DNA of 64,000 bases. Source: Escherichia coli (GTDB taxonomy: Bacteria > Pseudomonadota > Gammaproteobacteria > Enterobacterales > Enterobacteriaceae). Location: the NCBI RefSeq assembly GCF_030013205.1, contig NZ_CP122648.1; one strand, written 5' to 3'. Shown piece after piece: positions 2,299-42,293 of the stretch. A program made the translations under genes and the position numbers. Positions within the stretch are counted from its first letter, which is position 1. The number at the start of each line of letters is the position of its first letter. The notes under the pieces are model-generated. The model was not told the origin of the DNA. It was given only the letters and a program-made list of their open reading frames with translations, and made no database searches.

Positions 2299-3761
2299 TC
2301 AATCGTCAACTTTCACGCCTGCTGTTGTGCAGCATTCTCGGCAGCACGACGCTGATTTCCGGCTGTGCCCTGGTACGTAAGGATTCTGCGCCTCATCAAC
2401 AGCTCAAACCGGAACAAATCAAACTGGCCGATGATATTCATCTTGCCAGCTCCGGTTGGCCGCAGGCGCAGTGGTGGAAACAACTCAATGACCCGCAGTT
2501 GGATGCCCTGATCCAACGGACGCTAAGTGGTTCACACACCCTCGCCGAAGCGAAACTGCGGGAAGAAAAAGCGCAGTCCCAGGCCGATTTGTTAGATGCT
2601 GGTTCACAGTTGCAGGTGGCAGCGTTAGGGATGCTCAACCGCCAACGTGTCTCGGCGAACGGCTTTTTAAGCCCTTATGCGATGGATGCGCCCGCACTGG
2701 GGATGGACGGGCCGTACTATACGGAAGCCACAGTCGGTTTGTTTGCCGGACTGGATCTCGATTTGTGGGGTGTGCATCGCTCAGCGGTTGCCGCTGCCAT
2801 TGGCGCGCATAATGCCGCGCTGGCAGAAACCGCAGCAGTAGAGCTATCGCTGACCACGGGCGTAGCGCAGCTTTATTACAGTATGCAGGCCAGCTATCAG
2901 ATGCTCGATCTGTTAGAACAAACTCGCGATGTGATTGATTACGCGGTAAAAGCGCACCAGAGTAAAGTGGCGCACGGTCTGGAAGCGCAAGTGCCTTTCC
3001 ACGGCGCGCGGGCACAGATTCTGGCGGTCGATAAACAAATTGCTGCCGTTAAAGGGCAAATCTCCGAAACGCGAGAATCTCTGCGCGCATTGATTGGCGC
3101 GGGAGCCAGCGATATGCCGGAGATCAGACCGGTGGCATTACCGCAAGTCCAGACCGGCATTCCGGCGACACTCTCTTATGAGTTGCTCGCCAGACGCCCG
3201 GATCTGCAAGCCATGCGCTGGTATGTTCAGGCGTCATTAGATCAGGTGGATTCCGCGCGGGCGCTGTTCTATCCGAGCTTTGATATCAAAGCGTTTTTCG
3301 GCCTGGACTCTATCCACCTGGATACCTTATTCAAAAAAACCAGTCGCCAGTTCAACTTTATCCCGGGTCTGAAATTGCCGCTGTTTGACGGTGGACGGTT
3401 GAATGCCAATCTCGAAGGCACTCGCGCCGCCAGCAACATGATGATTGAACGTTACAACCAGTCAGTGCTGAATGCGGTGCGCGACGTTGCCGTCAACGGC
3501 ACGCGTCTGCAAACGCTTAACGACGAGCGAGAGATGCAGGCTGAACGCGTGGAAGCAACGCGCTTCACCCAGCGCGCTGCCGAGGCCGCCTATCAACGCG
3601 GCTTAACCAGCCGCTTACAGGCCACCGAAGCCCGGTTGCCAGTGCTTGCCGAGGAGATGTCATTACTGATGCTGGACAGCCGCCGGGTGATCCAAAGCAT
3701 TCAGTTGATGAAATCGCTGGGCGGCGGGTATCAGGCAAGTCCCGTCGTCGAGAAAAAATAA
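2295..3761 (+). CDS. mdtP: Outer-membrane efflux factor MdtP (488 aa, lipoprotein signal LISGC)
   Basis: 488-aa ORF with N-terminal lipobox (..LISGCALV); start overlaps mdtO stop; OMF-family length. Confidence 0.9.
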   Translation: MINRQLSRLLLCSILGSTTLISGCALVRKDSAPHQQLKPEQIKLADDIHLASSGWPQAQWWKQLNDPQLDALIQRTLSGSHTLAEAKLREEKAQSQADLLDAGSQLQVAALGMLNRQRVSANGFLSPYAMDAPALGMDGPYYTEATVGLFAGLDLDLWGVHRSAVAAAIGAHNAALAETAAVELSLTTGVAQLYYSMQASYQMLDLLEQTRDVIDYAVKAHQSKVAHGLEAQVPFHGARAQILAVDKQIAAVKGQISETRESLRALIGAGASDMPEIRPVALPQVQTGIPATLSYELLARRPDLQAMRWYVQASLDQVDSARALFYPSFDIKAFFGLDSIHLDTLFKKTSRQFNFIPGLKLPLFDGGRLNANLEGTRAASNMMIERYNQSVLNAVRDVAVNGTRLQTLNDEREMQAERVEATRFTQRAAEAAYQRGLTSRLQATEARLPVLAEEMSLLMLDSRRVIQSIQLMKSLGGGYQASPVVEKK

Positions 3762-3769
3762 AATGTCTG

Positions 3770-3797
3770 CCGCGTGATGGCTGTCACGCGGTATTTC
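3770..3797 (+). terminator. Stem-loop (CCGCGTGA..TCACGCGG) after mdtP, putative intrinsic terminator
   Basis: 8-bp perfect inverted repeat at 3770-3777/3784-3791 followed by T-rich tract. Confidence 0.5.
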
Positions 3798-3800
3798 GTT

Positions 3801-3838
3801 TCGTCACGTCAAAACTGACGACAGCCTGTTTTTCGTCA
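3801..3838 (+). promoter_or_regulatory. Putative FhlA upstream activating sequence for fdhF
   Basis: Palindrome CGTCAAAACTGACG (3807-3820) flanked by repeated TTTCGTCA motifs, ~100 bp upstream of a sigma54 -24/-12 element. Confidence 0.4.
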
Positions 3839-3890
3839 GAGTTTTGAATAAATAGTGCCCGTAATATCAGGGAATGACCCCAAATAAAAT

Positions 3891-3906
3891 GTGGCATAAA
3901 AGATGC
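3891..3906 (+). promoter_or_regulatory. sigma54 (-24/-12) promoter of fdhF
   Basis: TGGCAT-aaaag-ATGCA with GG(3892-3893)-N10-GC(3904-3905) spacing, ~55 bp upstream of fdhF ATG. Confidence 0.6.
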
Positions 3907-3958
3907 ATACTGTAGTCGAGAGCGCGTATGCGTGATTTGATTAACTGGAGCGAGACCG

Positions 3959-6106
3959 ATGAAAAAAGTCGTCACGGTTTGCCCCTATTGCGCATCAGGT
4001 TGCAAAATCAACCTGGTCGTCGATAACGGCAAAATCGTCCGGGCGGAGGCAGCGCAGGGGAAAACCAACCAGGGTACCCTGTGTCTGAAGGGTTATTATG
4101 GCTGGGACTTCATTAACGATACCCAGATCCTGACCCCGCGCCTGAAAACCCCCATGATCCGTCGCCAGCGTGGCGGCAAACTCGAACCTGTTTCCTGGGA
4201 TGAGGCACTGAATTACGTTGCCGAGCGCCTGAGCGCCATCAAAGAGAAGTACGGTCCGGATGCCATCCAGACGACCGGCTCCTCGCGTGGTACGGGTAAC
4301 GAAACCAACTATGTAATGCAAAAATTTGCGCGCGCCGTTATTGGTACCAATAACGTTGACTGCTGCGCTCGTGTCTGACACGGCCCATCGGTTGCAGGTC
4401 TGCACCAATCGGTCGGTAATGGCGCAATGAGCAATGCTATTAACGAAATTGATAATACCGATTTAGTGTTCGTTTTCGGGTACAACCCGGCGGATTCCCA
4501 CCCAATCGTGGCGAATCACGTAATTAACGCTAAACGTAACGGGGCGAAAATTATCGTCTGCGATCCGCGCAAAATTGAAACCGCGCGCATTGCTGACATG
4601 CACATTGCACTGAAAAACGGCTCGAACATCGCGCTGTTGAATGCGATGGGCCATGTCATTATTGAAGAAAATTTGTACGACAAAGCGTTCGTCGCTTCCC
4701 GTACAGAAGGCTTTGAAGAGTATCGTAAAATCGTTGAAGGCTACACGCCGGAGTCGGTTGAAGATATCACCGGCGTCAGCGCCAGTGAGATTCGTCAGGC
4801 GGCACGGATGTATGCCCAGGCGAAAAGCGCCGCCATCCTGTGGGGCATGGGTGTAACCCAGTTCTACCAGGGCGTGGAAACCGTGCGTTCTCTGACCAGC
4901 CTCGCGATGCTGACCGGTAACCTCGGTAAGCCGCATGCGGGTGTAAACCCGGTTCGTGGTCAGAACAACGTGCAGGGTGCCTGCGATATGGGCGCGCTGC
5001 CGGATACGTATCCGGGATACCAGTACGTGAAAGATCCGGCTAACCGCGAGAAATTCGCCAAAGCCTGGGGCGTGGAAAGCCTGCCTGCTCATACCGGTTA
5101 TCGCATCAGCGAGCTGCCGCACCGCGCAGCGCATGGTGAAGTGCGTGCCGCGTACATTATGGGCGAAGATCCGCTGCAAACTGACGCGGAACTGTCGGCA
5201 GTACGTAAAGCCTTTGAAGATCTGGAACTGGTTATCGTTCAGGACATCTTTATGACCAAAACCGCGTCGGCGGCGGATGTCATTTTACCGTCAACGTCAT
5301 GGGGCGAGCATGAAGGCGTGTTTACTGCGGCTGACCGTGGCTTCCAGCGTTTCTTCAAAGCGGTTGAACCGAAGTGGGATCTGAAAACGGACTGGCAGAT
5401 TATCAGTGAAATCGCCACCCGTATGGGTTATCCGATGCACTACAACAACACCCAGGAGATCTGGGATGAGTTGCGTCATCTGTGCCCGGATTTCTACGGT
5501 GCGACTTACGAAAAAATGGGCGAACTGGGCTTCATTCAGTGGCCTTGCCGCGATACTTCAGATGCCGATCAGGGGACTTCTTATCTGTTTAAAGAGAAGT
5601 TTGATACCCCGAACGGTCTGGCGCAGTTCTTCACCTGCGACTGGGTAGCGCCAATCGACAAACTCACCGACGAGTACCCGATGGTACTGTCAACGGTGCG
5701 TGAAGTTGGTCACTACTCTTGCCGTTCGATGACCGGTAACTGTGCAGCACTGGCGGCGCTGGCTGATGAACCTGGCTACGCACAAATCAATACCGAAGAC
5801 GCCAAACGTCTGGGTATTGAAGATGAGGCATTGGTTTGGGTGCACTCGCGTAAAGGCAAAATTATCACCCGTGCGCAGGTCAGCGATCGTCCGAACAAAG
5901 GGGCGATTTATATGACCTACCAGTGGTGGATTGGTGCCTGTAACGAGCTGGTTACCGAAAACTTAAGCCCGATTACGAAAACGCCGGAATACAAATACTG
6001 CGCCGTGCGCGTCGAGCCGATCGCCGATCAGCGCGCCGCCGAGCAGTACGTGATTGACGAGTACAACAAGTTGAAAACTCGCCTGCGCGAAGCGGCACTG
6101 GCGTAA
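3959..6106 (+). CDS. fdhF: Formate dehydrogenase H (selenocysteine-containing, 715 aa) with in-frame UGA (Sec) at 4376-4378
   Basis: Two ORFs in the track (3959-4378 and 4427-6106) are in the same frame and separated only by a TGA; N-terminal 4Fe-4S Cys motif CPYCASGC; flanking protein ..CCARV-U-HGPSVAGL..; total 716 codons. Confidence 0.95.
4376..4420 (+). other. UGA-Sec codon plus SECIS stem-loop
   Basis: Immediately 3' of the in-frame TGA: CACGGCCCATCGGTTGCAGGTCTGCACCAATCGGTCGG can fold as a hairpin (CCATCGGTTG / CACCAATCGG arms), as expected for the bacterial SECIS. Confidence 0.75.
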
Positions 6107-6120
6107 TACAGTCCTTTCTA

Positions 6121-6147
6121 CAGCCTCCTTTCGGAGGCTGTTTTTTT
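6121..6147 (+). terminator. Intrinsic terminator after fdhF
   Basis: CAGCCTCC-tttc-GGAGGCTG hairpin followed by TTTTTTT. Confidence 0.8.
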
Positions 6148-6199
6148 ATCCATTCGAACTCTTTATACTGGTTACTCCCTACCCAATCGTATTATCAAA

Positions 6200-6889
6200 A
6201 TGAAAAAAATTATCGCATTGATGTTGTTTTTAACATTCTTTGCCCACGCGAACGACTCCGAGCCTGGCAGCCAGTATTTAAAGGCAGCAGAGGCCGGGGA
6301 CCGACGCGCACAATATTTTCTTGCCGACAGCTGGTTTAGCTCCGGCGATTTGAGCAAAGCCGAATATTGGGCACAGAAAGCCGCCGACAGCGGTGATGCT
6401 GATGCCTGCGCGCTGCTGGCGCAGATCAAAATCACCAATCCGGTCAGTCTGGACTATCCACAAGCAAAAGTTCTTGCAGAGAAAGCGGCGCAAGCGGGGA
6501 GTAAAGAAGGTGAAGTAACGCTGGCGCATATTCTGGTAAATACGCAAGCGGGTAAACCGGATTATCCAAAGGCGATTTCGCTGTTAGAAAACGCTTCGGA
6601 AGATCTGGAGAACGACTCTGCCGTCGATGCCCAAATGCTGCTTGGTTTGATTTACGCCAACGGCGTGGGCATTAAGGCCGACGATGACAAGGCAACCTGG
6701 TATTTCAAACGCAGCTCTGCGATTTCCCGAACCGGTTATTCCGAGTACTGGGCGGGAATGATGTTCTTAAACGGTGAAGAAGGTTTTATCGAGAAGAACA
6801 AGCAAAAGGCGCTGCACTGGTTGAATCTGAGCTGTATGGAAGGGTTTGATACCGGGTGTGAAGAGTTTGAAAAATTAACTAACGGTTAA
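6200..6889 (+). CDS. yjcO: Sel1-repeat (TPR-like) periplasmic protein YjcO (229 aa)
   Basis: Signal peptide MKKIIALMLFLTFFAHA; repeated A/G-rich Sel1-like motifs (AQYFLA..., GDADAC..., GVGIKAD...). Confidence 0.85.
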   Translation: MKKIIALMLFLTFFAHANDSEPGSQYLKAAEAGDRRAQYFLADSWFSSGDLSKAEYWAQKAADSGDADACALLAQIKITNPVSLDYPQAKVLAEKAAQAGSKEGEVTLAHILVNTQAGKPDYPKAISLLENASEDLENDSAVDAQMLLGLIYANGVGIKADDDKATWYFKRSSAISRTGYSEYWAGMMFLNGEEGFIEKNKQKALHWLNLSCMEGFDTGCEEFEKLTNG

Positions 6890-19712: not shown

Positions 19713-21005
19713 ATGTGCTACAATGGTTTAAATAATATGTTTTTCCCTCTTTGCCAGATTAACAATAACCACTCTGTCACAAGTCCATCACATACAAAGA
19801 AAACAAAATCAGATAATTACAGAAAACATCATAAAAACACGTTAATTGACAATAAAGCCCTCTCTCTTTTCAAAATAGATGATCATGAAAAAGTGATAGG
19901 CTTGATTCAGAAAATGAAAAGATTTTATGATAGTTTACCATCAGGAAAAATCACGAAAGAAACGGACAGGAAAATACATAAATATTTTATAGATATAGCT
20001 TCACATGCAAATAATAAATGTGACGATAGAATTACGAGAAGAGTTTACCTTAATAAAGATAAGGAAGTGTCCATTAAGGTAGTATATTTTATAAACAATG
20101 TCACCGTCCATAATAATACTATCGAAATCCCACAGACAGTAAATGGTGGTTACGATTTTTCACACCTTAGCCTGAAAGGTATCGTGATTAAAGATGAAGA
20201 TTTATCCAATTCGAATTTTGCAGGTTGCAGACTACAAAACGCTATTTTCCAGGACTGTAATATGTATAAAACGAATTTTAATTTCGCCATAATGGAAAAA
20301 ATACTTTTTGATAATTGTATTCTCGATGACTCAAATTTCGCTCAGATAAAAATGACTGACGGAACTCTAAATTCATGCTCCGCTATCCATGTTCAATTCT
20401 ACAATGCAGCAATGAATAGAGCCAATATTAAAAATACCTTCCTTGACTATTCAAATTTTTATATGGCGTACATGGTTGAGGTAAATTTTTATAAAGTAAT
20501 AGCGCCGTATGTTAATTTATTTAGAGCCGATCTTAGTTTCTCTAAACTCGATTTAATTAACTTTGAACATGCTGATCTGTCTCGCGTCAATCTGAACAAA
20601 GCAACTCTCCAGAATATAAACTTAATTGATAGCAAACTCTTTTTTACGCGGCTGACAAATACATTCCTTGAAATGGTTATATGTACCGGCTCTAATATGG
20701 CTAATGTTAATTTTAATAATGCCAATTTAAGCAATTGCCATTTCAACTGTTCTATTTTAACAAAAGCCTGGATGTTTAATACCCGTCTCTATCGGGTTAA
20801 TTTCGATGAGGCTAACGTGCAGGGAATGGGCATTTCCATTCTCCGTGAGGAGGAAAATATCCCCATTAATAGTGATACCCTGATAACACTACAGAAATTC
20901 TTTGAAGAAGATTGTACCTCTCATACTGGCATGTCACAAACTGAGGATAATATTCATGCAGTCGCTATGAAGATTACTGCAGATATTATGCGAGATGCAG
21001 ATTGA
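19713..21005 (+). CDS. yjcF: Pentapeptide-repeat protein YjcF (about 430 aa; start uncertain)
   Basis: AT-rich ORF with long runs of A(D/N)LSxxxLxxAxLxxxN-type pentapeptide repeats. Confidence 0.8.
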   Translation: MCYNGLNNMFFPLCQINNNHSVTSPSHTKKTKSDNYRKHHKNTLIDNKALSLFKIDDHEKVIGLIQKMKRFYDSLPSGKITKETDRKIHKYFIDIASHANNKCDDRITRRVYLNKDKEVSIKVVYFINNVTVHNNTIEIPQTVNGGYDFSHLSLKGIVIKDEDLSNSNFAGCRLQNAIFQDCNMYKTNFNFAIMEKILFDNCILDDSNFAQIKMTDGTLNSCSAIHVQFYNAAMNRANIKNTFLDYSNFYMAYMVEVNFYKVIAPYVNLFRADLSFSKLDLINFEHADLSRVNLNKATLQNINLIDSKLFFTRLTNTFLEMVICTGSNMANVNFNNANLSNCHFNCSILTKAWMFNTRLYRVNFDEANVQGMGISILREEENIPINSDTLITLQKFFEEDCTSHTGMSQTEDNIHAVAMKITADIMRDAD

Positions 21006-24580: not shown

Positions 24581-24829
24581 CGATGCGCAAGATTGCAGCG
24601 TTATCGAGCCATATACCGTTCAGGATTGCGATAAAAAATCGTCTGAGATGACAAAAATATTGCGGCTAAAAAGTGTACTTTTACTCTGGCGAAGAAACGC
24701 CGGTGACATACAATTAAAGCATCAACACCAACCGGAACCTCCACCACGTGCTCGAATGAGGTGTGTTGACGTCGGGGGAAACCCTCCTGTGTACCAGCGG
24801 GATAGAGAGAAAGACAAAGACCGGAAAAC

Positions 24830-24860
24830 AAACTAAAGCGCCCTTGTGGCGCTTTAGTTT
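24830..24860. terminator. Palindromic terminator at the soxR 3' end
   Basis: AAACTAAAGCGCC-cttgtg-GCGCTTTAGTTT perfect 13-bp inverted repeat. Confidence 0.7.
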
Positions 24861-25318
24861 TGTTCATCTTCCAGCAAGCGTGCGCCTGTGCCTTCTTCTC
24901 CTAAGCGGTCGCCCGGGTTACGCAATGGGCAATCACTGCGCGAAAGGCAGCCACAACCAATACATCCGTCCAGCTCGTCACGCAGCGCCACTAAGGTATG
25001 AATGCGCCGATCCAACTCTTCTCGCCATTGGGACGAAAGCTGTTTCCACTCTTTCGCACTTAATGTATGCCCTTCGGGCAACACGCCGAATGCTTCACGA
25101 ATGGTCGCCAGCGGAATGCCAATACGCTGAGCAATTTTGATGATTGCGACATATCGCAACACATCACGTTTATATCGCCGCTGATTGCCACTATTACGGA
25201 TACTGCTAATCAACCCTTTGCTTTCATAGAAATGCAGCGCCGATACCGCCACACCGCTGCGTTTTGCCACTTCGCCGGGGGTTAGCAGCGCTTTAATGCG
25301 GGGTAATTTCTTTTCCAT
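24854..25318 (-). CDS. soxR: Redox-sensitive MerR-family activator SoxR (154 aa)
   Basis: MerR-type N-terminal HTH; C-terminal [2Fe-2S] motif [12 protein letters not shown]. Confidence 0.95.
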
Positions 25319-39968: not shown

Positions 39969-39987
39969 CATTACAAGAATCATGCCA
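39969..39987 (-). promoter_or_regulatory. sigma54 promoter of pspG
   Basis: Minus strand reads TGGCATGATTCTTGTAAT (GG-N10-TG, pspA-like -24/-12), ~35 bp upstream of the pspG ATG. Confidence 0.55.
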
Positions 39988-41195: not shown

Positions 41196-42293
41196 ATGGC
41201 GTACTATAACATAGAGAAACGACTAAAATCCGATGGCACACCACGCTATCGCTGTAATGTGATTATCAAAGAAAAAGGTGTTATCACTTACAGGGAAAGC
41301 AAAACATTCCCTAAACATGCTCATGCCAAAACATGGGGAACACAGAAAGTGATGGAATTAGATCTATATGGCATTCCATCATCAAATGCAGTTGACGGAC
41401 TTACAGTCCGTGACTTACTACACAAATATTTAAATGACCCAAATGCCGGAGGTAAAGCAGGCCGTACTAAAAGATATGTGCTGGAACTGCTTATGGATAG
41501 TGACATCTCCGCGATCAAACTATCTGAACTGACAGAAAATGACGTAATTGAACATTGCAGGCTAAGAAACAACGCTGGTGCAGGTCCAGCAACAGTCAGC
41601 CACGATGTTAGTTATCTTGGCAGTGTTCTGGATGCGGCCAAACCTGTATACGGAATTAATTACACATCAAACCCGGCGAAAAGCGCTCGCCCATATCTAC
41701 TTAAACTTGGTTTGATTGGTAAATCAAACCGTCGTAATCGTAGACCAGCATCTGATGAACTGGACATGCTCATTGAAGGCCTTCAACAACGATCTACTCA
41801 TAAATGCTCAAAAATTCCGTTCGTTGATATCCTCAAATTTTCTGTGTGGTCCTGTATGCGGATCGGAGAAGTATGCCGGTTACGATGGGAAGATCTCGAC
41901 CAGGAACAAAAATCTATACTCGTAAGAGACAGGAAAGATCCACGCAAAAAGGAAGGCAACCACATGAAAGTAGCCTTGCTTGGGGAAGCCTGGGATATCG
42001 TCCAACGACAGCCCAAAAAATCGGAATTCATTTTTCCATATAACAGCACTTCTGTTACTGCAGGATTTCAGAGGGTAAGAAGCAAATTAGGTATTAAAGA
42101 TCTGCGATACCATGATTTGCGTAGAGAAGGGGCAAGTCGCTTATTTGAGGCTGGTTTTAGTATTGAGGAAGTCGCTCAGGTTACAGGGCATCGTTCATTA
42201 AACGTGCTATGGCAGGTATATACCGAACTGTATCCGAAATCTTTACATAATCGTTTTGAAGAGCTCCAAAGGAGCAGAAATAAGACCTCTTGA
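41196..42293 (+). CDS. int: Tyrosine site-specific integrase (dusA-associated type, 365 aa)
   Basis: C-terminal catalytic domain with R..HxxR..Y layout (..MRIGEVCRLRWEDL.., ..RYHDLRREGASR.., ..VTGHRSLNVLWQVY..); located next to dusA 5' end. Confidence 0.9.
   Translation: MAYYNIEKRLKSDGTPRYRCNVIIKEKGVITYRESKTFPKHAHAKTWGTQKVMELDLYGIPSSNAVDGLTVRDLLHKYLNDPNAGGKAGRTKRYVLELLMDSDISAIKLSELTENDVIEHCRLRNNAGAGPATVSHDVSYLGSVLDAAKPVYGINYTSNPAKSARPYLLKLGLIGKSNRRNRRPASDELDMLIEGLQQRSTHKCSKIPFVDILKFSVWSCMRIGEVCRLRWEDLDQEQKSILVRDRKDPRKKEGNHMKVALLGEAWDIVQRQPKKSEFIFPYNSTSVTAGFQRVRSKLGIKDLRYHDLRREGASRLFEAGFSIEEVAQVTGHRSLNVLWQVYTELYPKSLHNRFEELQRSRNKTS

Follow-up and report, generated by a model that had tools for sequence, protein, structure and literature searches.

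The window analysed here, a 64-kb stretch of DNA from the E. coli strain ETEC4079, contains two plus-strand open reading frames, 3959-4378 (139 aa) and 4427-6106 (559 aa), both starting with ATG and lying in one common frame. When the interval 3959-6106 was translated as a whole, the TGA at 4376-4378, which is codon 140, was found to be the sole internal stop. RefSeq/PGAP annotates a single CDS of 2148 nt named fdhF with exactly these coordinates. Of 5426 complete E. coli genomes, 5419 have the locus at an identity of at least 95%. It is annotated as an intact CDS. The features of the locus are given below in the order of their position.

3799-3848, plus strand: upstream activating region with presumed FhlA sites, about 70-120 bp 5' of the inferred transcription start
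3892-3907, plus strand: sigma54 (RpoN) promoter TGGCATAAAAGATGCA, with the -24 GG at 3893-3894 and the -12 GC at 3905-3906
3947-3950, plus strand: Shine-Dalgarno-like GGAG, 8 nt 5' of the ATG, read from the sequence and of inferred function
3959-6106, plus strand: fdhF CDS, 715 codons and a stop, formate dehydrogenase H, based on translation, PDB identity, TIGR01591 and RefSeq
4371-4425, plus strand: SECIS element, an mRNA hairpin inside the CDS which binds SelB according to the literature, based on Rfam RF01988 SECIS_2 and comparative conservation
4376-4378, plus strand: UGA codon 140, read as selenocysteine, the only internal stop, aligned with X140 of the solved structure
6120-6141, plus strand: hairpin and T run resembling an intrinsic terminator, 14 nt past the fdhF stop, of inferred function

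The candidate terminator was obtained in a consensus scan and is composed of a 9-bp stem with 6 GC pairs followed by TTTTTTT. As a terminator is predicted so close to the 3' end of fdhF, the transcript is probably monocistronic.

The product of reading through the TGA was compared with a protein family profile and with solved structures. It scores 1095.7 bits with the TIGR01591 equivalog (cut-off 666.25 bits) and covers profile positions 1-672 of 672. The N-terminal fragment alone covers positions 1-128 and the C-terminal fragment positions 146-672. With Cys put in at position 140 of the query, residues 1-715 are 100% identical to FDH-H in PDB 1AA6, 1FDI, 1FDO, 2IV2 and 7Z0T, and the non-standard residue X140 of the PDB chain aligns with the UGA codon. 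An earlier note on this DNA, made from the sequence alone, had proposed one gene interrupted by an in-frame UGA and had suggested aligning the 715-aa translation to FDH-H. The alignment gave identity over the full length with X at 140, and the consecutive coverage of TIGR01591 by both frames, together with the match of the read-through product to the FDH-H chain, bears the proposal out. Residue positions were also checked, and the [4Fe-4S] ligands Cys8, Cys11, Cys15 and Cys42 as well as the active site residues Sec140, His141 and Arg333 are all in place. FdhF is a molybdopterin-guanine-dinucleotide and [4Fe-4S] selenoenzyme, formate dehydrogenase H, and from its identity to the characterised enzyme its presumed activity is the oxidation of formate within the formate hydrogenlyase complex.

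The two frames could also be taken as two genes, whose products would be subunits, a small one for Fe-S and a large one for molybdopterin, assembling after translation. Each fragment alone matches the FdhF profile significantly and the second ORF opens with ATG, as such an arrangement would have it. However, the fragments represent positions 1-128 and 146-672 of one and the same equivalog, and residues 140-156 are encoded in frame between them, the downstream part of this stretch being the SECIS. The TGA cuts through the Pfam Molybdopterin domain PF00384, all 715 residues of the PDB chain belong to a single polypeptide, and 4427 is not preceded by any apparent Shine-Dalgarno sequence. Two genes were rejected on the basis of the one equivalog, the split of PF00384 at the TGA and the single PDB chain, and their probability is negligible. 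The preferred reading is a single fdhF gene, and the halves, which the earlier note had considered might align to separate proteins, align to one family profile, TIGR01591. The expectation that naive gene calling would split fdhF also proved right. The exact 139-aa and 559-aa pieces are stored as separate public proteins, with cluster sizes of 2374 and 11377, while RefSeq/PGAP has one CDS.

To follow codon 140 among homologues, a scan was made with a coding motif blind to the identity of this codon, which gave 123 loci. TGA was found at the position in 58 of them and TGC or TGT, both coding for Cys, in the other 65. The alternative to TGA was therefore always Cys and never a different stop, and the TGA loci represent many genera. 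This distribution bears directly on whether the TGA is a true nonsense mutation, with fdhF a pseudogene and the two ORFs its decaying remnants. Such a view would agree with the two fragments in the mechanical ORF list and with their listing as separate proteins in many public gene calls. Against it stand the restriction of codon 140 to TGA (58 loci, many genera) or Cys, the annotation of the locus as an intact CDS, its presence at an identity of at least 95% in all but 7 of the 5426 E. coli genomes, and the solved structure with a non-standard residue at 140. Moreover, the downstream ORF has its full length and does not differ from the crystallised protein, and the SECIS directly follows the TGA. 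A pseudogene was rejected on the conserved TGA/Cys codon, the intact CDS, X140 in the structure and the SECIS, and is very improbable. fdhF is thus read as a functional gene with a recoded codon. In experimental work the terms 'UGA140' and 'Sec140' are in use, and the fdhF UGA140 with its SECIS is a standard recoding substrate (PMC4513850).

The in-frame UGA is located immediately 5' of the SECIS hairpin, and the frame of the CDS is the same on either side. The hairpin, which the earlier note had placed 3' of the TGA, was recovered by Rfam RF01988 SECIS_2 at 4371-4425 with 87.1 bits (E = 1.8e-17, model positions 1-55 of 55), above the gathering score of 70, and every consensus pair is formed. 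Since the source sequences of the Rfam model include the fdhF family, this match is one of near-identity and not independent evidence. A review describes an essential 17-nt upper stem-loop with a bulged U17 and apical G23 and U24, and names U17 and G23 as SelB contacts (PMC8659212). The corresponding upper stem-loop GGUUGCAGGUCUGCACC, 17 nt long (nt 15-31), is found here at 4390-4406, 11 nt past the UGA. The bulged U17 maps to 4392, the apical loop GGUC to 4397-4400, and G23 and U24 to 4398 and 4399.

Folding of 4371-4425 gave a minimum free energy of -19.7 kcal/mol with a structure equal to the Rfam consensus, and 4376-4425 gave -14.9 kcal/mol. The stability of the hairpin does not go beyond that of dinucleotide shuffles (z = -0.08 for 4376-4425 and -1.23 for 4371-4425). 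To our knowledge, stability above the expectation from composition is not a defining trait of the SECIS_2 family in the literature. Of the stable hairpin anticipated in the earlier note, the folding and the Rfam structure were thus recovered, but the stability is no better than that of shuffled sequences and lower than that of the same region in Cys-type homologues. As free energy alone is unable to establish a SECIS, the covariance model and a comparison of Sec-type with Cys-type sequences were used instead, and both of these do exceed chance.

This comparison included 32 distinct Sec-type and 64 Cys-type sequences. The apical CAGGTCTGC is unchanged in all 32 Sec-type sequences, whereas 44 different apical 10-mers occur among the 64 Cys-type ones. 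The 20 SECIS pairs form to 91% in the Sec-type and to 64% in the Cys-type. When held in the SECIS structure, the Sec-type has an energy of -15.7 kcal/mol and the Cys-type +2.7 kcal/mol. In their own folds the Cys-type homologues are the more stable over the same region (-17.0 versus -14.1 kcal/mol), and the lower average stability of the SECIS region could reflect selection for a hairpin which can be melted and refolded. It is by specific geometry and apical sequence, rather than by stability, that the SECIS is identified. Compensatory changes were observed at pairs 15-31 and 18-29 in six Pasteurellaceae sequences; as they are confined to this one lineage, no more than one or two events may account for them. 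The RF01988 consensus pairs U17 and bulges U18, whereas the literature has U17 bulged. The Pasteurellaceae change from U18-A29 to A18-U29 fits the version with bulged U17, against the consensus pairing of RF01988. For the E. coli SECIS the two versions are equal in energy.

The same comparison bears on the manner in which the UGA is decoded. A near-cognate tRNA, for Trp or Cys, might mainly read the UGA, with the hairpin acting only as a generic stimulator of read-through or as a pause. The thermodynamically unremarkable hairpin would suit this mechanism, as would the incomplete recoding of 30-40% (PMC4513850). However, the apical CAGGUCUGC is invariant, synonymous positions included, only in the homologues which contain TGA, and this argues for sequence-specific recognition and not for a generic roadblock. 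The contacts of SelB named in the review, U17 and G23 (PMC8659212), and the Sec machinery encoded in the source genome also speak against near-cognate decoding, which has next to no probability. Decoding as selenocysteine is preferred. As suggested at the outset, the source genome was checked for selA, selB and selC, and selA, selB and a tRNA-Sec are all annotated in ETEC4079. In NZ_CP122643.1, selA is situated at 151091-152482, selB at 152479-154329 and tRNA-Sec at 66205-66299, and, of 5426 E. coli genomes, 5424 contain selC.

Upstream of the CDS, a sigma54 -24/-12 element had been claimed, and one is present at 3892-3907 with a sequence identical to the site bound in K-12 ChIP-seq. A search of the whole 64-kb window for TGGCA-N7-TGCA gave a single match, TGGCATAAAAGATGCA, canonically spaced, on the strand of fdhF and 52 nt 5' of the ATG. 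As a window of this size should contain about one match by chance, the information lies in this position. On the RpoN matrix the element scores 13.4 bits and ranks 4 in the window, and TGGCA-N7-TGCAT is kept in 37 of the 55 Sec-type loci examined. In E. coli K-12, GTGGCATAAAAGATGCA is the sigma54 ChIP-seq site OS41, assigned to fdhF with a distance of 41 (PMC4591121), and the 17-mer at the ETEC4079 promoter is identical to it. fdhF is also a target of RpoN in gSELEX (PMC8743547). Counted from the -12 position, transcription would start near 3917-3918, so that the 5' UTR would measure about 41 nt.

Further upstream, the repeats claimed within 3801-3838 are present and lie inside a phylogenetically conserved block at 3799-3848, whose centre, CGTCA-N4-TGACG, is 85 bp 5' of the promoter. 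They comprise a direct repeat TTTCGTCA at 3799-3806 and 3831-3838, an inverted pair TCGTCA/TGACGA at 3801-3806/3816-3821, a palindrome CGTCAAAACTGACG at 3807-3820 and, at 3835-3848, a further palindrome that is imperfect, GTCA-N6-TGAa. Literature cited in passages of PMC11291172 and PMC7658346 describes FhlA binding upstream of fdhF. The literal FhlA consensus TGWC-N6-GWCA has 3 matches in the window, none of them upstream of fdhF. Scored with the published FhlA matrix, which was built from 13 promoters, the fdhF intergenic region has its best site at 3807-3820; this site reaches 8.1 bits and ranks 100 in the window, the matrix being a weak discriminator. As the matrix is by itself not evidence, phylogenetic footprinting was used. 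The aligned block TCGWCACGTCA-N4-TGACGA...TTTTCGTCAG was found to be conserved across Enterobacterales fdhF loci. In most motif-bearing Sec-type fdhF loci, from many Enterobacterales genera, CGTCA-N4-TGACG is usually situated 85 bp upstream of the sigma54 motif. Cys-type paralogues have the two elements about 75-78 bp apart. Two suggestions are rather doubtful, and each is possibly already contained in the older FhlA/SECIS literature. One is that the near-fixed spacing of 85 bp between palindrome and -24 element is locked to helical phase (about 75-78 bp in the Cys-type), the other that the SECIS is kept under selection as a hairpin which ribosomes can melt and which can refold.

Taken together, 3959-6106 is almost certainly the single E. 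coli gene fdhF, driven by sigma54 and presumably activated by FhlA, in which UGA 140 is read as selenocysteine by means of a SECIS. This reading is based on the sequence anatomy, the identity to a solved selenoprotein, the covariance match, the conservation seen among homologues, and the selA, selB and selC genes carried by the genome. Nothing contradicting it was found. SelB binding by the SECIS, the insertion of selenocysteine which it would direct, FhlA binding and induction by formate are taken from the literature. In the proposed course of events, transcription of fdhF would start from the sigma54 promoter at 3892-3907, activated by FhlA on the conserved block 3799-3848 when formate accumulates under anaerobic conditions. 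The UGA at 4376-4378 would enter the A site while the downstream mRNA is folded as the SECIS, with its core at 4390-4406. The C-terminal domain of SelB would then bind the apical G23 and U24 and the bulged U17, a contact expected to tether SelB-GTP-Sec-tRNA(Sec) at the ribosome. Selenocysteine would be inserted at position 140 in competition with termination by RF2. Sec140 would ligate the active-site molybdenum, and FDH-H would be the subunit by which the formate hydrogenlyase complex oxidises formate.

The gene, its UGA and its SECIS are already known and represent a textbook case, with nothing new in them. fdhF is one of the earliest examples of a gene with a UGA demonstrated to code for selenocysteine, and genetic, biochemical and structural work on it spans decades. 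The finding advances no open question. Its value is that of a quality check, as raw sequence was enough to recognise a selenoprotein gene with a recoded codon, together with its SECIS and sigma54 promoter. Unsupervised gene callers still deposit the halves of fdhF as separate proteins, in clusters of thousands.

The locus is closest to fdhF of E. coli K-12 (b4079). The two proteins do not differ in any of their 715 residues, Sec140 included, and the neighbourhood mdtNOP-fdhF-yjcO-gltP-nrf and the sequence of the sigma54 promoter are shared, so that no functional difference is seen in the ETEC4079 locus. This strain is of a porcine ETEC lineage, and ETEC4079 (NZ_CP122643.1) was the one genome to match 50000-64000 of the window in full. 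Other parts of the window are not the same as in K-12, a prophage at dusA being one example. As a side observation, the window is colinear with strain K_EC180 only as far as about 41110, and the prophage was noted from that break. Published experiments on SelB and on recoding were made with an element of the same sequence as this SECIS. The promoter appears to share the architecture of the FhlA/sigma54 promoters of hyc, hyp and hydN-hypF, which lie outside the window and in which a -24/-12 element is combined with an activator site roughly 100 bp upstream. Its own presumed activator site resembles the FhlA matrix from 13 promoters, though with only 8.1 bits. The Cys-type homologues and paralogues of FdhF, in Enterobacterales and other bacteria, share the active-site motif DCCARV-x-HGP and the Fe-S cysteine motif. 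Their N-terminal region is of similar length, with the codon mostly at 139-140 and in a few at 126-130, and some of them also have a sigma54 motif and the CGTCA-N4-TGACG palindrome upstream. Unlike fdhF, they have TGC or TGT in place of TGA, are without a SECIS and are variable in the apical sequence.

The fdhF gene, at 3959-6106 on the plus strand, is one reading frame interrupted by an in-frame TGA, and ORF scan and translation returned exactly the ORF and TGA coordinates from which the earlier note had proposed a single selenoprotein gene. When 3959-6106 was translated whole, 715 sense codons were obtained with one internal stop. The parts of the frame are as follows.

3959-4378 (+), ATG-initiated ORF of 139 codons
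4376-4378 (+), TGA, codon 140, the sole internal stop
4427-6106 (+), ATG-initiated ORF of 559 codons, in the same frame as the first

With cysteine put at the stop, the read-through product equals the E. coli formate dehydrogenase H (FDH-H) chain at 715 of 715 positions (PDB entries 1AA6, 1FDI, 1FDO, 2IV2 and 7Z0T). The concatenated translation is thus identical to FdhF throughout, and the deposited sequence carries the non-standard residue X precisely at position 140. The [4Fe-4S] ligands Cys8, Cys11, Cys15 and Cys42 are in place along with His141 and Arg333. The NCBIfam equivalog TIGR01591 matched the read-through product end to end (1-672, 1095.7 bits, cut-off 666). Taken separately, the 139-aa ORF covers 1-128 of this model and the 559-aa ORF 146-672, and this consecutive coverage marks them as adjacent pieces of one protein rather than two proteins. 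RefSeq annotates one CDS, fdhF, with the same boundaries and with mdtP and yjcO as neighbours. By megablast of 3700-6200, 5419 of the 5426 complete E. coli genomes have the locus with an identity of at least 95%; the other seven gave no match to this interval. Four of the 5420 matches were on records labelled plasmid.

Naive gene calling was expected to split fdhF, and this is true for unsupervised callers while PGAP and RefSeq treat the gene properly. Proteins identical to the 139-aa ORF and to the 559-aa ORF stand as separate entries in a collection of 15 billion proteins, each on at least 1000 contigs, with 2374 and 11377 members respectively in their 90% identity clusters. Names given to the fragments include 'Formate dehydrogenase H' and 'hypothetical protein, partial'. 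In one metagenome contig both fragments were called adjacent, with the Pfam Molybdopterin domain divided between them.

The SECIS element proposed directly 3' of the TGA was recovered by Rfam SECIS_2 (RF01988) over the whole model at 4371-4425 (87.1 bits, gathering score 70, E = 1.8e-17), a match that is near an identity match because the model is founded on the fdhF gene family. The fdhF SECIS is about 40 nt long. What is essential in it is a 17-nt upper stem-loop spanning nucleotides 15-31 (the U of UGA being nucleotide 1), hence 11 nt past the codon, with a bulged U17 and with G23 and U24 in the apical loop; SelB contacts U17 and G23 (PMC8659212). All these published landmarks could be mapped.

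4390-4406 (+), SECIS upper stem-loop, GGUUGCAGGUCUGCACC
4392 (+), bulged U17
4398 and 4399 (+), apical G23 and U24

In PMC4513850 this very fragment (codons 130-179, comprising UGA140 and then the SECIS) was the recoding substrate, and 30-40% recoding was observed in vivo. The folding check was borne out in part. The hairpin does form, and the minimum free energy (MFE) fold of the 55 nt at 4371-4425 is exactly the Rfam consensus structure (-19.7 kcal/mol), but its stability was not beyond chance against dinucleotide shuffles, either for this span (z = -1.23) or for the 50-nt stretch proposed in the earlier note (-14.9 kcal/mol, z = -0.08).

Homologues with cysteine at the active site served as natural control. 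The scan took a single genome for each species of bacteria and archaea and used a degenerate nucleotide pattern encoding the active-site motif DCCARV-x-HGP, with the third base of codon x left free. Among 123 loci, a total which includes the window and two additional loci (L008 and L009), codon x was TGA in 58 (Sec-type) and TGC or TGT in 65 (Cys-type). The 32 distinct Sec-type and 64 distinct Cys-type 55-mers were compared.

Comparison of Sec-type and Cys-type regions
Apical sequence: Sec-type, CAGGTCTGC invariant, synonymous positions included; Cys-type, 44 different apical 10-mers
Share of the 20 Rfam pairs formed: Sec-type, 91%; Cys-type, 64% (Mann-Whitney p = 2e-15)
Mean energy in the SECIS structure: Sec-type, -15.7 kcal/mol; Cys-type, +2.7 kcal/mol
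Unconstrained MFE: Sec-type, -14.1 kcal/mol; Cys-type, -17.0 kcal/mol

The mere existence of a stable hairpin is not discriminating, since the Cys-type region is no less stable when folded; what sets the SECIS apart is its particular shape and the sequence of its loop. The lower average stability of the Sec-type region in free folding, over the 50 nt from the Sec or Cys codon, has a Mann-Whitney p of 1e-5, and composition accounts for at least part of the MFE gap, G+C being 63.7% in Sec-type and 67.4% in Cys-type. When the 3' partners in the Sec-type alignment A1 were slid by 1-3 columns, pairing fell from 91-92% to 23-50%. Six Pasteurellaceae sequences have U-A in place of G15-C31, and if the bulge is U17 and not U18, the same six also change U18-A29 to A-U. 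These substitutions favour the geometry with U17 bulged, as published, rather than that of the Rfam consensus line, the covariation evidence being modest as it comes from a single lineage.

A pseudogene, two separate subunits, or near-cognate read-through of UGA140 could each be proposed for a frame with an internal stop. All three conflict with the findings: codon 140 is conserved as TGA or Cys, FDH-H was crystallised as a single chain, the Molybdopterin domain is split across the fragments, and the SECIS loop is conserved in a sequence-specific way.

Selenocysteine recoding also needs its machinery, and no sel gene was found within the 64-kb window. Position 1 of the window is position 4662873 of NZ_CP122643.1 (E. 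coli ETEC4079), and this record carries all three elements sought elsewhere in the genome, annotated as follows.

NZ_CP122643.1 66205-66299, tRNA-Sec (selC)
NZ_CP122643.1 151091-152482, selA
NZ_CP122643.1 152479-154329, selB

A 95-nt selC query, confirmed in identity by the 'tRNA-Sec' annotation beneath its matches, matched 5424 of 5426 E. coli genomes. Some 280 bp separate tRNA-Sec from an IS2 element (66580-67808), and an IS1 element (154358-155055) lies 29 bp past the selB end; they replace or abut the K-12 neighbours, and selA, selB and selC are annotated intact.

The region upstream of fdhF was claimed to carry a sigma54 -24/-12 element and FhlA-type repeats, and the following features were located around the gene.

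3768-3793, terminator-like hairpin after mdtP
3799-3806 and 3831-3838, direct repeat TTTCGTCA
3807-3820, palindrome CGTCAAAACTGACG at the centre of the repeat region
3892-3907 (+), sigma54 element TGGCATAAAAGATGCA, GG at 3893-3894 and GC at 3905-3906, canonical spacing
3947-3950 (+), GGAG, 8 nt ahead of the fdhF ATG
6120-6141, terminator-like hairpin after fdhF with a run of seven T

TGGCA-N7-TGCA has its single match in the window at 3892-3907. As about one is expected by chance per 64 kb, it is the location that carries the weight, 52 nt ahead of the fdhF ATG in an intergenic region of 197 bp. Site OS41 of the genome-wide K-12 sigma54 ChIP-seq map, assigned to fdhF, has the 17-mer GTGGCATAAAAGATGCA letter for letter (PMC4591121), and fdhF is among the RpoN holoenzyme targets in genomic SELEX (PMC8743547). 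No sigma70-like promoter was predicted in the fdhF upstream region. From the -12 position, transcription would start near 3917-3918, and the terminator-like hairpins after mdtP and fdhF suggest a monocistronic transcript. A second sigma54 promoter of the window, TGGCATGATTCTTGTA at 39972-39987 (-) upstream of pspG, is identical to ChIP-seq site OS40 (PMC4591121).

The repeat region, 3801-3838, contains an inverted pair TCGTCA/TGACGA. In a count matrix built from 13 FhlA-dependent promoters (PMC7658346, Table 2), 3807-3820 was the best of the intergenic region at 8.1 bits, which alone proves little as 99 other window positions score as high or higher. The upstream sequence was long enough in 55 Sec-type loci. 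In 37 of them TGGCA-N7-TGCA(T) stands 48-160 bp ahead of the start codon, and in most of these 37 the best matrix match is CGTCA-N4-TGACG with a varying centre (AAAC, ATAT, AAAG, AATT, AAAA), 85 bp upstream of the sigma54 motif (a few at 76 or 86-88 bp). It is found in Citrobacter, Enterobacter, Kluyvera, Shimwellia, Pseudocitrobacter, Escherichia albertii and others. In a promoter-anchored alignment the conserved block TCGWCACGTCA-N4-TGACGA, then TTTTCGTCAG(G/A)GTTTTG, corresponds to 3799-3848 while its flanks diverged; the repeats thus fall on an element that is under constraint across genera and lies as far from the promoter as an enhancer would. Passages of PMC11291172 and PMC7658346 cite FhlA as the protein binding upstream of fdhF. 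Many Enterobacterales genomes (L010-L129) have a Sec-type fdhF and a Cys-type paralogue together. About 12 Cys-type copies also have the sigma54 motif (e.g. L012, L029, L031, L036, L077, L107, L110, L119), most together with a CGTCA-N4-TGACG-like palindrome, which precedes the motif by about 75-78 bp, compared with 85 bp in Sec-type.

Beside fdhF, the window carries espX5 at 19713-21005 (+), annotated as a T3SS effector pentapeptide-repeat protein, between actP and yjcE, and the Hfq-binding sRNA sraL (ryjA) at 24721-24861 (+, 153.3 bits), adjoining soxR and convergent with it. Colinearity with other E. coli ends at about 41110 of the window, where the 5' end of dusA carries the insertion of a degraded lambdoid prophage (41110-64000). 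Its annotated genes include a tyrosine integrase (about 41196-42293), a DinI-like protein, tail fibre genes, gpJ, truncated tape-measure and terminase pseudogenes, holins, an M15 endolysin, an AraC-family regulator, antiterminator Q, RusA, a LexA-family repressor and an N6-adenine methyltransferase. Only one of 5426 complete E. coli genomes, ETEC4079, has the whole 14-kb stretch 50000-64000 at 100%. Within the prophage, a tRNA-Gly (anticodon UCC) at 57201-57275 (-) is flanked by the lysis genes and the AraC-family gene (Rfam tRNA, 65.6 bits; called by ARAGORN and RefSeq); the prophage-free comparison strain K_EC180 carries malE at the corresponding offset.

What is observed is the anatomy of fdhF, its identity with a gene already characterised, the constraint seen in the comparison of homologues, and selA, selB and selC in the source genome; established knowledge would supply the following course of expression. 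Under anaerobiosis, formate-activated FhlA at the upstream block would contact the sigma54 holoenzyme and open the promoter. During translation as far as codon 139, SelB would use its C-terminal winged-helix domains to bind the GGUC loop and bulged U17 of the SECIS. SelB so bound, carrying GTP and Sec-tRNA(Sec), would compete with RF2 at UGA140 and deliver Sec there. The hairpin would then be melted by the ribosome and translated as residues 141-153, and Sec140 would coordinate the molybdenum of the bis-MGD cofactor at the formate-oxidising site.

The observation of the earlier note is therefore confirmed and its interpretation supported. The locus can be used as a positive control for the scan. 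fdhF is the textbook case of bacterial selenocysteine recoding, already known and already annotated correctly in RefSeq.
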